A DNA stretch of 64,000 nucleotides from an uncultured Bdellovibrio sp. (GTDB lineage: Bacteria > Bdellovibrionota > Bdellovibrionia > Bdellovibrionales > Bdellovibrionaceae): positions 1 through 64,000 of the forward strand of contig CAWVRN010000026.1 in the NCBI GenBank assembly GCA_963932905.1. The letters run 5' to 3'. Below are positions 8,028 through 25,083 of the stretch, piece after piece. The position numbers and the translations under genes were made by a program. The notes under the pieces were generated by a model. It was not told where the DNA came from and made no database searches. It saw nothing but the letters and a program-made list of their open reading frames with translations. Every line of letters starts with the position of its first letter. Position 1 is the first letter of the stretch.

Positions 8028-9698
8028 CTATTTTTTATAAAATTGGTAGCACATAGTTTTACTGATACGACTCAGAGTTAAACTAGCACTATTTGCATAA
8101 CCACCCCATTGATAGGGGTCTTGGCCAGCGATATTTCTCAAAATACGCTGCACTTCTTTTTTTCCTGAATCATCTAAAAGAAGAAACAGCTCCGGCAAAT
8201 TAATCGAAGCATGAAGGTCAATGATAACCTCTTTTGCCGCATGCCTTAACTCAAAATCATCGCTAGTTAGGGCATCGGAAAAATATTTTGCAAACTTCTC
8301 TATTGGATAGTCTTTGATACTTATCATGCCCAAAAACTGCCGAATTCGTTGTCTTGCATCAAATTGACGATTGAAAAGCTCACTCTCTATTTTTGAAACA
8401 AAATGATTGAAATCTTTAGATTGTCTGTATCTCATCCAAAGCACATAAACATAAGAATCAACAGCAGCAGAGAACACATTTTCTCGCCCCCGGATAAGTT
8501 TAGAAAATTGAATATCTTTTTCCACAAAAGAAACCAAAGAGTTATTTTTAGTAAGGTGATCAAATATTCTAGCCAATTCGGATTGCAATTGAGGGTTTTC
8601 CATCACAGATAAAAACTCGCTTTCATAGGAACGTTGGCCTGTAATATCCAAACTAGTTAGATTTGAAACTAAATCCAATGCCCAACGGTTAGTTCTAAAA
8701 AACTTCGATTTTTCCTTTAAGGTATTTCGCAAAACTTCTGGGGTAAATCGTTTCCAAGCATACAACGCATAAAAGAAGGGTTTGCGTCCCTCAATAGCTA
8801 GACTTAAACTACCATCACCGGTAACCAATATAGGAATATCTGAGCTTTTTATAATTTTTTGATTTAACGTAAAAGGTAAGTTTTTCATTTTAATAATTTT
8901 AACTAACGGGTTAGTTACCGTTACGTCGTGGTTAGTAACAATGACAACTTCAATATTGCGTTGGTTTATCCATTTTTCTACGGCCGAAACATACTGTTGT
9001 GCCAGAGGTTGCGACGAAGTGTAAGCGTAGCCAAGTTTAGCCTCACTAGAGAAAACAACCGAAGGATTTGTTTTTGATAACAATTCAAAGGTTGTTTTCT
9101 TATTAAAGTCTTCAGGTCGAAATCCGTCCAAGACATAGAGGCCACTTGTAATTCCGGTATTAATCATATAGGAACCATTCAATATCATGTTAATTGGAGT
9201 CTTAACCTGATAATTTTTTACCGATTCAAAAAAACCATGGACATCCGTCTGAAGTTCTTCATATTCATAGTATCCGATCGTTTTCTTACCCAGTGTTTTT
9301 GGAGCCCAATGCCGAGCCGAGAACGTAATAACATAATCCAGTTCTTGAGCCTTTGTGTCTTTTGAAAATACTATACCACGAATGATCTGCTTTTCTTTTT
9401 TTGGATCAAAATCAGGCCACAGCACCTGAATTTGTTCTTCTGACTCTCGATTGTAAACAACGTTAACTACAGTATCCGTGTCTTTATAAAAATGACTTAG
9501 TCGTTCAATCATCAATAAATTAACGGCGGTATCGCCAAAACCTCCACGAGGAGGACTGATCATGATATTGATGTTTTCAGCCTTAGCCAGAGATAGAAAA
9601 CCTATAGCCAAAATAGAAACAGCACTAATGAGCCAACGACTGACCAAATTTTGTACACATATAGATGTCAATTTCGAATGTATCCACTTTCTCATCAT
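8028..9698 (-). CDS. Secreted GT-B fold glycosyltransferase-like protein (EarP-like motifs) with C-terminal CYQFYKK tag
   Basis: Signal peptide; GGFGDTAVNLLMIERL and ILVTGDGSLSLAIEGRKPFFY resemble the two GT-B/EarP nucleotide-sugar motifs. Confidence 0.6.
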   Translation of the reverse strand: MMRKWIHSKLTSICVQNLVSRWLISAVSILAIGFLSLAKAENINIMISPPRGGFGDTAVNLLMIERLSHFYKDTDTVVNVVYNRESEEQIQVLWPDFDPKKEKQIIRGIVFSKDTKAQELDYVITFSARHWAPKTLGKKTIGYYEYEELQTDVHGFFESVKNYQVKTPINMILNGSYMINTGITSGLYVLDGFRPEDFNKKTTFELLSKTNPSVVFSSEAKLGYAYTSSQPLAQQYVSAVEKWINQRNIEVVIVTNHDVTVTNPLVKIIKMKNLPFTLNQKIIKSSDIPILVTGDGSLSLAIEGRKPFFYALYAWKRFTPEVLRNTLKEKSKFFRTNRWALDLVSNLTSLDITGQRSYESEFLSVMENPQLQSELARIFDHLTKNNSLVSFVEKDIQFSKLIRGRENVFSAAVDSYVYVLWMRYRQSKDFNHFVSKIESELFNRQFDARQRIRQFLGMISIKDYPIEKFAKYFSDALTSDDFELRHAAKEVIIDLHASINLPELFLLLDDSGKKEVQRILRNIAGQDPYQWGGYANSASLTLSRISKTMCYQFYKK

Positions 9699-9712
9699 AA
9701 GAATTAACTAAG

Positions 9713-9727
9713 GCAATTCCTATTCCA
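9713..9727 (-). promoter_or_regulatory. Candidate sigma54 -24/-12 promoter
   Basis: Minus strand TGGAATAGGAATTGC (GG-N10-GC), about 15 nt before the ATG at 9698. Confidence 0.55.
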
Positions 9728-10030
9728 TCACAAAAAATTGTATTGATCCCCGAAGTGTGGGACGACATCACCGTCGATCTTTTAGATGGCTTAAAATCTG
9801 GTTACTTTTTATTACGATAATCGAAGTTCACATCAAAGAAGATCCACCAGAAAGTCGTACTCAAAACTTTAAAGGCATGCTTGAGTAAGGTTCTGAAGAC
9901 TTAATTCGCACGGCACAGGTCAGGCACTCCCTATCGAAGTACTGTTGAAATATTATGGACAAGCTAGTTCAAAGTAATTAAAATTAACCAAGGAACGGCG
10001 ATTTCGCTGAATGAAATTTGAAGGCGACTG

Positions 10031-10630
10031 ATGAACAAAACAAAGTCTAATTATAAACTTTCCGCTTTAACGATAGAGAGACTTGCCAACGTCGTCCCCC
10101 ATCCACGATATGGTTCGAAGATCATTCTTTCAGATCAAGGCACCAACGATAAGCCGATTGAGGTTACCCATTTTTCTTTCACTGAAGTGCGCTTCCCTGA
10201 ATCCGCGATCCTTGCCGATAAAAGCAAGCATAATTTTTCGACAATGTCGCATATTAATTGGTACATGGATACCCTTCTCGACTGTCTAACTTGCCGCAAG
10301 CCTTTCCTGTTTTTTGCTCTTGAGCAGCAATATTGGTATGAAACCCTTCGATTTCGCGTGGAGTCAGTCTGCCTCAACTGCCCCAATTGCCGAAAGACAG
10401 AACGTGAACTTCAGCAACGTTGGCAGAGGTATTCGAACTTAATTGTTCGCGAACAATTTGCCGACGAAGAATTACTTCAACTAGCAGAAGACACCGTCTT
10501 TCTTTGGCAGCATGGCTTGCTAAGGAGCGAACAACGCCTTCGAGAAATTCGCAACCGTGTTCATAGACAGATCCAAAGAAGCTCCATCGCTTCTGAATTG
10601 GATAAACTCATCGCTGCAATCAAAGACTAA
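10031..10630 (+). CDS. Zinc-ribbon domain protein
   Basis: YMDTLLDCLTCRKPFLFFALEQQYWYE...CLNCPNCR. Confidence 0.75.
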   Translation: MNKTKSNYKLSALTIERLANVVPHPRYGSKIILSDQGTNDKPIEVTHFSFTEVRFPESAILADKSKHNFSTMSHINWYMDTLLDCLTCRKPFLFFALEQQYWYETLRFRVESVCLNCPNCRKTERELQQRWQRYSNLIVREQFADEELLQLAEDTVFLWQHGLLRSEQRLREIRNRVHRQIQRSSIASELDKLIAAIKD

Positions 10631-23301: not shown

Positions 23302-23307
23302 TTATTT

Positions 23308-23338
23308 GGCACGTTTGTCTTTTTGAGACAAACGTGCC
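23308..23338. terminator. Hairpin after the 20961-23301 operon
   Basis: GGCACGTTTGTCT-N5-AGACAAACGTGCC, perfect 13-bp arms. Confidence 0.6.
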
Positions 23339-23532
23339 TCTGGACCATCTTGTTCAAGTGTAAATGATCGGCACATGTGAATTCTGACTGAAGCTATTCG
23401 GACCATGAACGAAAAAACTCCCTTTACCTGGGGTAGCGCTGATAAATGTGATTTTGAAGCAGCGAAATCGGTCACTTCGTCTAAAATTTGACAGGTTACA
23501 AATGTCCGTCGACCGTGTAAACTTCCTGGCCG

Positions 23533-25083
23533 ATGCAAAAAATTTATCTGCTTTCCGTCACTATTTTTCTATTGCTTCCACTGTGGAGTAACGCGGCACC
23601 CACCCTGATTTCGGGTTCCGACGCCATAACATTTATAAGCAAAATTAAAACTGAACTCGACGCCGTTAGTGAATTTAATCCTGATGGAATAAAATATGGA
23701 AACGAGTTCACCCTAGAAATTTCAAACGATGTTAGCGAGTCGACACTGTGGCAAGTGAAGGCGAACGAGCAATATATTACCTTCATGGTATCTGAGGCTG
23801 CGCTTAAAAACGGAATGAGTTTAGAACGATGGCTCCAGCTGTATGCATACATATATGCGGCCCACAGCTGGAGGCCTATGCGTTTGATGAATCAGCAGCA
23901 AGTACTGGCTGACCCCAACGCTTCGCCCGCTGAAAAATATTCGTTAGAGATTAACTCTCTGAATTTGCTCAAAGAACTGCATACTGCCACAGAAGATAGT
24001 GTGTGGGGCTACACTAGGGCCATCAGCATGCCCGAAGACCGACATTCAAAATCCTATAAAATGGGTGCCTACCTTTTTTTAAGTGTAGCTAACGCATTAA
24101 AAGTTCCTATCGTCATGGGCACTCCTACCGCAGAACTACGCGAACCCATGAACACTTTAGCAAAAACTTTAGGTGCTGTTTTGAACGAAATGATCGAGAC
24201 CAAAAAGGCCGTCGTCCAGCAATTCGTTAACGATCAAAATAAAGTTTCAAGATTTCAGAAATCGTCCGTTAAAGTGAGCGATCTTTTAGACCACGTTAGA
24301 AGAAATGATCGAAAAGGCGCAGCGCAGATGCTAGAATCCTCCTTGCCCTGGGATCTATTTACGGCCGCAGAAATGCGCTTATACACAGAGTTTATTGAAT
24401 CTATTCGCCATCCCAATTGGGACGATTCTATTTATCTTTTAAGGGGAACCAACGCCGCCTTGGATCCTAACCCCGAAGCCGATGGCCTAAGTTCAAAGTT
24501 ATTTAAATTAGATCGGCATCAAAATTTATCCGTCAACGAGGTGTTTACCAAGTACCGTGAAGAATGGGGCCTGACTGCTGTTAATCGCCGCAACGACATT
24601 CCCTTTCCCAGTTTTTTTAACTTTGGCGAAAATCATTCCCATTCTTCGGCATCGAAGGACGGCTTCCCGTCTGGCCTCATTAGCACGTCCCTTTCGGCGC
24701 CGGTGGTGAGCAAGTTTGCTAAAGGTAGCAAGGTCATGATACGTGTGGATTCACGTCGTATGTACCCAAACTTTGAGTCAATGATGTATTTTGAACGAGA
24801 AGTTTTAATCCCATTTTTTGTTTTTCCTGATGAGGTCGAGGGTCTATTAGTAAAAGATCCGACCACAAAAAAATCCGCGATCATTAGAACCAAAGATCAA
24901 TCGATAAACGTGCGGGCCACAGATTTTTTAATCAAAAATATGGCAAAAGATGCGCTCGCAGAAGTGTATAATCGCGAAGTATGGAAAAAAGCCTATCAGA
25001 GTTTGTTCCCAAAATCATTTCCCGAGTTAACTAGCGGTGCAAAACTGAATCAATGCATAGGGTTCTATCGCTCGCTGCCGTAG
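23533..25083 (+). CDS. Secreted putative ADP-ribosyltransferase (R-S-E class) with C-terminal CIGFYR tag
   Basis: Signal peptide; YLLRG (R), LISTSLS..VVSKFA (STS), FEREVLIP (ExE) in canonical order. Confidence 0.65.
   Translation: MQKIYLLSVTIFLLLPLWSNAAPTLISGSDAITFISKIKTELDAVSEFNPDGIKYGNEFTLEISNDVSESTLWQVKANEQYITFMVSEAALKNGMSLERWLQLYAYIYAAHSWRPMRLMNQQQVLADPNASPAEKYSLEINSLNLLKELHTATEDSVWGYTRAISMPEDRHSKSYKMGAYLFLSVANALKVPIVMGTPTAELREPMNTLAKTLGAVLNEMIETKKAVVQQFVNDQNKVSRFQKSSVKVSDLLDHVRRNDRKGAAQMLESSLPWDLFTAAEMRLYTEFIESIRHPNWDDSIYLLRGTNAALDPNPEADGLSSKLFKLDRHQNLSVNEVFTKYREEWGLTAVNRRNDIPFPSFFNFGENHSHSSASKDGFPSGLISTSLSAPVVSKFAKGSKVMIRVDSRRMYPNFESMMYFEREVLIPFFVFPDEVEGLLVKDPTTKKSAIIRTKDQSINVRATDFLIKNMAKDALAEVYNREVWKKAYQSLFPKSFPELTSGAKLNQCIGFYRSLP

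Follow-up and report, generated by a model that had tools for sequence, protein, structure and literature searches.

Why should five exported proteins with no evident similarity to one another carry the same short cysteine motif, three of them at one end and two at the other? The question is raised by a 64,000-nucleotide stretch of DNA from an uncultured Bdellovibrio sp. (assembly GCA_963932905.1, contig CAWVRN010000026.1, positions 1 to 64,000; hereafter the window), in which five open reading frames (ORFs) between positions 8,028 and 25,083 encode the motif C-x-x-[FY]-Y-[KQR]. The original prediction, made from these letters alone, placed the motif at the extreme C terminus of three proteins and shortly behind the signal peptide of the other two, and all five positions were confirmed in the sequence when the coordinates were rechecked. 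Each of the five frames is open and starts with a segment resembling a signal peptide; as had also been claimed, the motif cysteine is the sole cysteine outside the signal peptide in each of them. Our analyses of the draft genome that carries the window (4.55 Mb, 40.7% GC; labelled G000) and of its relatives, named as Bdellovibrio sp., Bdellovibrionaceae or Pseudobdellovibrionaceae metagenome-assembled genomes, identify the motif as a portable, selected terminal lone-cysteine tag.

A cysteine motif enriched at the ends of exported proteins

The genome-wide scan covered 3987 ORFs of at least 100 residues each, which are longest-ORF calls made by a simple script and not by a gene finder, and all counts are approximate. 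N-proximal means residues 16-81 and C-terminal means within 7 residues of the C-end, and the chance expectation is given as means and maxima over 100 residue shuffles. Comparison with shuffled controls had been proposed as a check at the outset, and the enrichment was strong at both ends and absent from the interior. The strict motif C-x-x-[FY]-Y-[KQR] was found 16 times N-proximally, 12 times C-terminally and 3 times elsewhere, against shuffle means of 1.13, 0.15 and 4.59, respectively. The core C-x-x-[FY]-Y was found 49 times N-proximally (shuffle mean 8.05, maximum 14) and 31 times C-terminally (0.93, maximum 4); because its 22 occurrences elsewhere do not exceed chance (28.76, maximum 42), only the protein ends are enriched. 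With an added asparagine, N-x-C-x-x-[FY]-Y, the counts were 12 N-proximal, 18 C-terminal and 0 elsewhere (shuffles, 0.4, 0.02 and 1.5), and permuted versions of the motif, six in all, were seen 0-5 times N-proximally, 0-2 times C-terminally and 2-8 times in the interior. The crude ORF calling, together with a few N-proximal rows that are transmembrane or cytoplasmic proteins, might suggest a motif born of chance or of the composition of the called ORFs, but the shuffled and permuted controls, the conservation of the motif in homologues and the depletion of other cysteines described below rule out such an artefact for all practical purposes.

Curation required a hydrophobic segment shortly before an N-proximal motif, by which 13 N-proximal rows were set aside, and 5 further rows without signal-peptide context (2 N-proximal and 3 C-terminal) were removed by eye. 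The curated set comprises 62 tagged ORFs, of which 34 have the tag at the N-terminal end and 28 at the C terminus, and their unrelated bodies number about 59; only 3 pairs of tagged paralogues were detected among the 62 (BLASTP, E ≤ 1e-5), which bears out genome-wide the dissimilarity first reported for the five window proteins. Eight further ORFs with C-x-x-[VLW]-Y lie beyond this set. Signal peptides were called by a crude hydrophobicity rule, which was passed by 45 of the 62 tagged ORFs compared with 1018 of the 3447 ORFs of at least 150 residues, and a strongly hydrophobic 10-mer is present within the first 80 residues of 30 of the 31 ORFs with a C-terminal motif. No curated ORF (0 of 62) is tagged at both ends.

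The consensus in this genus is N-x-C-x-x-F-Y, within a logo that reads R(-6)..N(-2)-[SQAM]-C-[LRHV]-[GQSR]-F-Y-[KRSG] when positions are counted from the cysteine; lysine and arginine are enriched on both flanks of the tag, and no residue is conserved after +4. N-terminal tags are followed by a stretch rich in proline, lysine and serine, and C-terminal tags leave 0-7 residues between the tyrosine and the C-end, with no hydrophobic stretch; the tail beyond the tag cysteine spans 4-11 residues in this genome. Both AlphaFold2 (AF2) models obtained (for 8028-9698 and 23533-25083) place a low-confidence linker of 13-20 residues before the tag, and the tag region itself is predicted, again with low confidence, as a short helix with the cysteine, +3 and +4 on one face. 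Tagged genes are scattered over the genome and cluster only mildly, 17 of the 62 having a tagged neighbour within 5 genes (7.9 expected, random maximum 21). Horizontal transfer as the origin of the tagged genes was rejected on GC content (0.407 versus 0.409, p = 0.57).

Conservation of the tag in homologues and its spread across Bdellovibrionota

Orthologues lacking the tag, which had been named beforehand as a sign against it, did not appear: four of the five window proteins have homologues with a terminal cysteine tag, and the fifth has a paralogue with one. For 8028-9698, homologues at 25-30% identity were found in four of five congeneric genomes, and all four end in a cysteine tail, three as C-x-x-F-Y-x-x and one as CLSSYLLGTSL. 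A wider search started from one of these homologues returned 26 proteins, of which 24 have a cysteine within the last 18 residues and 2 do not; 14 members of this wider family carry C-x-x-F-Y, and distant members have tails such as CKSLF and CRQSVTF at the very end or CKNLF followed by further residues. The tag cysteine, C549, is conserved in at least 90% of 24 alignment rows. The 12308-13552 protein has two homologues, with the N-terminal tags CLHFY (70% identity) and CFEIF (34%). The sole homologue of 17988-18923 was found in Bdellovibrio sp. ZAP7 (35% identity) and carries ..AFAEGSQCSSVFN (CSSVF) past its signal peptide; the protein was not found in the five same-genus genomes. For 19541-20641, a paralogue in its own genome (43% identity) ends in CHFFYKTSL, and the 40 relatives gave no clean match, the one weak hit (E 6.8e-4) being broken by stop codons.

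The most extensive record comes from 23533-25083, whose family comprises 167 representative clusters. Among the 149 homologues listed (about 19% mean identity to the window protein), 129 have a cysteine within the last 16 residues, 79 carry C-x-x-[FYWLIMV]-[FYWL], and 74 contain exactly one cysteine in proteins that average about 560 residues; the consensus is C-[SREL]-[KGR]-[VLI]-F-x before the stop. In a 50-row alignment the tag cysteine is as conserved as the catalytic-looking residues, and in the alignments of this family and that of 8028-9698 the rows are only 13-34% identical to the window protein. A tagged protein outside the window behaves likewise: an N-tagged RelA/SpoT-like protein has CYFFY, CLFFY or CLYFY in homologues at 71, 57 and 39% identity, the tag being kept down to 39% in four of five genomes of the genus and giving way to the variant CLVTYF at about 35%, and these homologues have exactly one cysteine apiece. 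Across homologues, the tag cysteine is the one invariant position and the residues around it drift. The proposal of a portable tag, which occurs at either end of signal-peptide proteins with unrelated bodies and is selected in their homologues, therefore stands.

A DNA-pattern survey for N-x-C-x-x-F-Y, compared with a Y/F-swapped control, is noisy and detects that flavour only. It counted 68 occurrences versus 29 for the control in the genome carrying the window, 372 versus 252 in 9 congeners, 222 versus 243 in 15 other genomes of the same family and 227 versus 301 in 16 genomes of the order, so that this genus (g1), and this genome above all, is enriched for the FY flavour. The conclusion that the tag is genus-specific, which this survey might invite, was rejected, as homologues elsewhere carry other flavours. 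In other Bdellovibrionota the tag takes the form C-x-x-[VIL]-F. The family of 23533-25083, which has the features of an ADP-ribosyltransferase (ART; see below), turned up in 43 of the 301 genomes sampled from the phylum, spread over at least six taxonomic families; 11 of 11 loci from the family to which this genus belongs end in C-x-x-[VIL]-F plus 0-2 residues, and in 17 of 18 loci from other families a cysteine lies 11-15 residues from the end, with an amphipathic-looking tail after it (TCKDVIKMF..). In 1.1 Mb of a complete genome from another genus (G017, genus g9), four signal-peptide ORFs have a terminal C-x-x-V-F, two at each end; in three of them it holds the sole cysteine, and the fourth has three. 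Judged from such homologues, the tag device is wider than the genus; outside it the evidence comes from three families of proteins and a single genome that was sampled in part.

A terminal, linker-separated and portable peptide on Sec substrates is also what would be expected of a non-covalent linear signal for an outer-membrane export step, by a type II secretion system-like or other route, in which the cysteine would serve as a contact residue or metal ligand. Under this explanation the genus-specific flavours (FY in g1, V/I-F in g9) would arise because the tag co-evolves with its receptor. On the other hand, it is the cysteine that stays invariant while its neighbours drift, and peptide recognition does not explain the loss of other cysteines from the tagged proteins. 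We consider such a signal unlikely.

Depletion of other cysteines

Tagged signal-peptide ORFs contain 0.15-0.17 other cysteines per 100 residues compared with 1.01 in 973 untagged exported ORFs, a six-fold difference. Untagged exported ORFs prefer even numbers of cysteines (0 in 233 ORFs, 1 in 124, 2 in 169, 3 in 84 and 4 in 121), which indicates that disulfides form in this periplasm, whereas the counts in tagged exported ORFs are mostly odd (1 in 22, 2 in 12, 3 in 10 and 4 in 1). Selection has kept one lone thiol in a compartment that is oxidising, and the thiols that could compete with it are gone, a pattern that speaks for direct use of the thiol of the tag cysteine.

One use of a single free cysteine per protein in an oxidising compartment would be the formation of tag-to-tag disulfides, giving homo- or heterodimers, or a redox switch, neither with any role in sorting, and the lack of proteins tagged at both ends fits such pairing. 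However, it is not evident why about 59 unrelated enzymes should all need to dimerise via a 5-residue tail, and the conserved flanks suggest specific recognition, making this explanation improbable. Another use is suggested by the register of the tag, which is always a cysteine plus four residues with hydrophobic +3 and +4. Staphylococcal autoinducing peptide (AIP) rings have the same cysteine-plus-four register, and in AgrD/AIP-like processing a peptidase would cut after +4 and the cysteine thiol would join the new carboxyl in a 5-residue thiolactone; C-tagged proteins would thereby gain an activated C terminus, and N-tagged proteins would release a cyclic peptide. The C-terminal tails after +4 are indeed short and variable (0-7 residues), and of the 129 members of the ART family with a terminal cysteine, 16 end exactly at +4 and 48 at +5. 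Yet N- and C-terminal tags would yield opposite products, the 16 relatives ending at +4 would have no leaving group, nothing past +4 is conserved, and no AgrB-like enzyme was noticed in the loci read, although none was searched for; thiolactone formation is accordingly the most improbable of the chemistries considered here.

Apart from the tag, a cysteine in the penultimate position was found in 74 ORFs genome-wide (about 36 expected), among them small secreted ORFs ending in LSCQ, FSCQ or RQCK; examples in the window are 11403-11909(-), 31493-31774(-) and 53171-53692(+). This C-terminal cysteine signal is distinct from the tag and is probably a disulfide staple.

The tagged proteins

None of the five window proteins gave a match above threshold in Pfam or NCBIfam, nor any at E ≤ 1, and a PDB sequence search with three of them returned 0 matches at E ≤ 1. 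The best characterised is 23533-25083(+), a protein of 516 residues with a signal peptide, a helical N-domain, a domain of the R-S-ExE ART type (about residues 250-450), a disordered linker and the C-terminal tag NQCIGFYRSLP (25048-25080). In the 50-row alignment R260, R304, G305, H368 and E423 are invariant, and S380, S384, E421 and the tag cysteine C508 are at least 90% conserved. Its model (predicted local distance difference test score, pLDDT, 79; predicted template-modelling score, pTM, 0.81) shows residues 495-507 as disordered and 505-513 as a helix, and its top Foldseek matches are all ART toxins of the cholera, pertussis and typhoid type, at weak E-values (0.015-0.3). Although Pfam ADPrib_exo_Tox does not match it, the protein has the arginine, the Ser-x-Ser, the Glu-x-Glu and the fold of R-S-E ARTs, with fold matches that are weak. 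In loci L115-L132, which belong to other families, the same ART domain ends open frames of about 1270-1440 residues; a PNP_UDP_1 phosphorylase domain is present in one representative of the ART family, and in one genome five matches lie within a stretch of about 8 kb.

The 8028-9698(-) protein (556 residues) consists of a signal peptide, a GT-B-like body, a disordered linker and the C-terminal tag TMCYQFYKK (8031-8057), with the stop codon next. Foldseek ranks EarP, a protein rhamnosyltransferase, first (E 2e-7), followed by other GT-B proteins to 4e-4, at template-modelling (TM) scores of only 0.2-0.4. Its AF2 model, in which residues 526-545 are disordered and 546-554 form a short low-confidence helix, is poor (mean pLDDT 56, confident only over residues 195-345), and because of this the assignment of the body as GT-B glycosyltransferase-like stays weak. 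The 19541-20641(+) protein (366 residues) has a signal peptide and ends in NECLRFYKK (tag at 20612-20638); its similarity to GNAT clusters of the Atlas (feature score 0.90; structural TM 0.41-0.48 by query) makes GNAT/FeeM-like a lead for its body. In the two N-tagged proteins the tag lies a few residues past an AxA-like signal-peptidase site and the body follows. That of 12308-13552(+) (414 residues; ..AFGSNTACLRYYK) reads TACLRYYK (12395-12418) and lies 5 residues past the cleavage-like site AFG, and that of 17988-18923(+) (311 residues; ..SFARSQTTCHQFYQ) reads TTCHQFYQ (18072-18095).

The original prediction held that the bodies resemble target-modifying enzymes. In the window this was upheld by the ART-like 23533-25083 and, with the reservations just given, by the GT-B and GNAT leads, but not for 12308-13552, said to carry an HGxxTH motif, which has no match in Pfam, NCBIfam, PDB or the Atlas. 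Beyond the window, Pfam ART, GNAT, glycosyltransferase (GT) and kinase domains in other tagged ORFs also agree with the claim, which is correct for the most part. Outside the five window proteins, 51 tagged ORFs were scanned (five were not), and 25 matched Pfam: ADPrib_exo_Tox, RelA_SpoT, ABC1 kinase (two), AAA+/M41 FtsH-like (two), GNAT (two), PlsC-like acyltransferase, MGDG_synth, PLD (two), GDPD, APP1 phosphatidate phosphatase, glycerol-3-phosphate oxidase, PPDK_N ATP-binding, S8, S9, S41, C92 and M48 peptidases, GT and others. Going by these domains, many tagged proteins are enzymes dependent on ATP, NAD or acyl donors, or enzymes with lipids as their target. The combination of signal peptides with chemistry proper to the cytoplasm or the membrane makes these proteins probable prey-directed effectors, and the tag probably marks proteins sent against prey. 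To our knowledge, the proteins that Bdellovibrio-type predators direct at prey and the route taken by them are largely open questions, and it is unclear to us how ATP-, NAD- or acyl-donor-dependent enzymes reach a compartment that holds these compounds. Two paralogous ORFs of this genome, at C30:13797-17669 and C35:1562-5200 (1290 and 1212 residues), combine a signal peptide, ClpB/FtsH-like AAA+ modules, an M41 peptidase domain and a C-terminal tag; an exported ATP-dependent protease is odd in itself.

Possible covalent capture or membrane anchoring

The reading that we favour, as a possibility somewhat short of probable, is covalent capture of the tag cysteine, probably by a disulfide, on a shared carrier for a second step of export or delivery. 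The tag would sit on a flexible linker at whichever end of the protein is free. In the oxidising periplasm its two aromatic or hydrophobic residues would dock it on one shared partner (a carrier, a hub or a translocon component), to which the lone cysteine would bond reversibly and covalently, a disulfide being the simplest bond, so that different cargoes would be hitched to one second-step route of export or delivery; reduction in the prey cytoplasm would then free the cargo. A fuller version, in which one carrier or translocon loads dozens of cysteine-free enzymes, takes them out of the predator and through the prey inner membrane before reduction releases them, and so acts as a universal "B subunit" that can be combined with any of about 60 "A" enzymes, is rather unlikely as it stands.

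Several observations weigh against covalent capture. In the loci inspected, neither a conserved neighbour gene nor a partner, carrier or dedicated machinery was found, and the tagged genes are scattered. A relaxed motif in the 1.1 Mb of G017 was found 5 times C-terminally and 17 times N-proximally, against 3-4 and 15-21 for controls, and outside the genus the occurrence of the tag on many protein families is thinly documented. The depletion of cysteines could reflect only a reducing working compartment or a need to stay unfolded. A membrane anchor would account no less well for the basic flanks, the hydrophobic +3 and +4, the amphipathic-looking tails and the many cargoes that act on lipids. 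Finally, the partner, the disulfide nature and formation of its bond, the exit of tagged proteins from the cell and prey as their destination are all inferred. The search for a partner also showed no shared secretion or thiol enzyme, either by Pfam on 49 further ORFs of the window or on the two tag-rich contigs inspected; the first 400 kb of G017 contained no clear C-terminal tag, and 339 kb of a same-genus genome contained 1, although random samples of relatives such as these and the 1.1 Mb above are too small to carry much weight.

The membrane anchor is the principal competitor. Here the lone cysteine would be S-lipidated (diacylglyceryl or acyl) by an enzyme on the periplasmic face that recognises the motif, or the motif itself would be an interfacial membrane hook, anchoring soluble exported enzymes, as peripheral proteins, in the predator outer membrane, in vesicles or later in prey membranes. 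A cysteine followed by two hydrophobic or aromatic residues between basic flanks has the look of such a device, as do the short amphipathic-helix-like tail after the cysteine in other families and the helix predicted at low confidence in the models, with cysteine, +3 and +4 on one face. Many cargoes are lipid- or membrane-related: the two PLD proteins, GDPD, APP1, the PlsC-like acyltransferase, the monogalactosyldiacylglycerol (MGDG) synthase, the glycerol-3-phosphate oxidase and the FtsH-like proteases. There is even a candidate lipidation enzyme in a second Lgt paralogue, since two or more LGT (PF01790) places were found in 38 of the 41 genomes searched within the order. The best matches divide into a long form of about 360-390 residues and a short form of about 250-280; in the genome carrying the window the long form (C5:26372-27466) adjoins two C-tagged genes, and the short form (C27:5264-6010) is near a gene that looks lspA-like by eye. 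A search for CN_hydrolase (Lnt-like) proteins gave 4 places. However, the long form does not adjoin tagged genes in G017, and with both forms present in almost all genomes of the order, neither follows the abundance of the tag. Nor is the motif a lipobox, with its cysteine 8-18 residues past the hydrophobic core, N/S/D upstream and about half of the tags at the C terminus; lipidation of an internal or C-terminal cysteine is not known to us in Gram-negative bacteria, and the six-fold loss of other cysteines is left unexplained. A lipid anchor, which would make the tagged proteins a new class of bacterial lipoprotein, is doubtful on this evidence but is a serious contender.

Through the tag, sequence alone yields a list of candidate effectors that includes many orphan proteins. 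Its single cysteine offers a handle for the biochemical trapping of a partner, and it might serve as a portable tag for engineered cargo in "living antibiotic" predators. Should delivery by covalent capture be correct, the tag would read out the whole prey-directed effector repertoire. A cultivated strain, Bdellovibrio sp. ZAP7, has a related flavour (CSSVF), as does a genus for which complete genomes exist, so the idea is testable in laboratory-grown organisms.

Comparison with known terminal signals

Covalent capture through a terminal cysteine has a precedent in the gliding and type IX secretion system (T9SS) machinery of Bacteroidota, where tail cysteines of SprF/PorG are disulfide-bonded to the lipoprotein GldK/PorK and, in Porphyromonas gingivalis PorG, a single tail cysteine suffices (PMC12635249). 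As in the tagged proteins, the cysteine is in a flexible periplasmic terminal tail and provides a covalent hook to a shared hub. However, SprF and PorG are two outer-membrane barrel proteins that belong to one machine and not dozens of soluble enzymes, and the tail has C-x-C or a lone cysteine without an aromatic pair, is C-terminal only and belongs to another phylum. A GldK/PorK-like hub was not found here, although no search was aimed at one.

Disulfide tethering of a cargo for delivery is also familiar from AB toxins. In cholera toxin A1-A2 and typhoid toxin PltA-CdtB, a Sec-exported catalytic subunit with its site of action in the cytoplasm of a target cell is joined by one disulfide to a delivery part and is freed by reduction. 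The 23533-25083 protein is predicted to have the same ART fold class, and by analogy the tethering logic fits, but the toxins are dedicated pairs with large folded interfaces, in contrast to one tag of 5-7 residues on about 60 enzymes.

Several other known signals were also compared with the tag. LPXTG, PEP-CTERM, GlyGly-CTERM and MYXO-CTERM are tripartite (motif, transmembrane helix and basic cluster) and strictly C-terminal, with an invariant cysteine in MYXO-CTERM. They resemble the tag in being short signatures on many unrelated secreted proteins, expanded by lineage and, in MYXO-CTERM, built around an invariant cysteine, but a sortase- or exosortase-type signal was rejected because the tag has no hydrophobic helix, reaches the C-end 0-7 residues past the tyrosine, occurs in N-terminal copies and has no NCBIfam or Pfam match. 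The lipobox pathway (Lgt-Lsp-Lnt) uses [LVI][ASTVI][GAS]-C abutting the hydrophobic core, the cysteine becoming residue +1. The tag shares with it an invariant cysteine close to a signal peptide, and two Lgt paralogues in the order, but the cysteines of the 34 N-terminal tags lie 8-18 residues past the hydrophobic 9-mer, preceded by N/S/D at -2 and S/A/T/Q at -1, and 28 tags are C-terminal. The CaaX prenylation box, which is eukaryotic but is also present in effectors that exploit it, has its cysteine exactly fourth from the end. Likewise the tag can be a C-terminal cysteine followed by aliphatic or aromatic residues, but tails of 4-11 residues in this genome, three residues after the cysteine in only 2 of 129 ART members, and the N-terminal copies do not agree with CaaX, and the prey here are bacteria. 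The T9SS C-terminal domain, a folded beta-sandwich of roughly 70-100 residues, was also rejected, as there is no Pfam or NCBIfam match and the modelled tails are a low-confidence linker and a short helix. Cargo peptides of encapsulins and microcompartments are similar in logic, being short and portable, on flexible linkers, at either terminus, and taking unrelated enzymes to one partner, but they are cytoplasmic and non-covalent and have neither cysteine nor signal peptide.

No published description of the tag, of CxxFY or of its variants was found in the open full-text literature, which does not cover subscription-only papers. With the same coverage, nothing relevant was found in the accessible portions of the Bdellovibrio literature on sorting signals, C-terminal motifs, effectors, cysteines and ARTs, nor in the part of PMC12622784 that was available. 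Since the tag differs from the lipobox, sortase-type, CaaX and T9SS signals, has no Pfam or NCBIfam model and is not described in that literature, we regard it as a terminal tag of a new kind, with an inferred mechanism.

Other features of the window

A possible sixth instance is the lipoprotein encoded at 55606-56289(-), which has the lipobox LMLASC and ends in NSCGLFY. It is doubtful as a tag carrier, because a second cysteine outside the lipobox could pair with the terminal one. The gene is present in five of five same-genus genomes with conserved neighbours, and its product ends in CGLFY, CGLFL or CGVFF; the genes in its row, for a 361-residue protein (54502-55584(-)) and a PlsC-like acyltransferase (53743-54498(-)), are likewise kept in all five.

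Directly downstream of 8028-9698 lies a gene for a DUF4303 protein (7383-7952(-)), and a SUKH-1/SMI1 protein is encoded at 27885-28721(-), neither with an evident signal peptide. SUKH proteins are immunity proteins of polymorphic toxin systems, and for this reason the two genes may belong to an effector island and encode cytoplasmic immunity proteins. An IS3-type transposase (helix-turn-helix and rve) extends over three consecutive ORFs at 26595-27847(+), probably split by frameshifts, amid orphan secreted genes. Further along, an untagged S8 subtilase of 1048 residues (58437-61583(-)) with a PA domain and a lipoprotein-like N terminus (..LLIACQKK) looks like an ordinary predator hydrolase.

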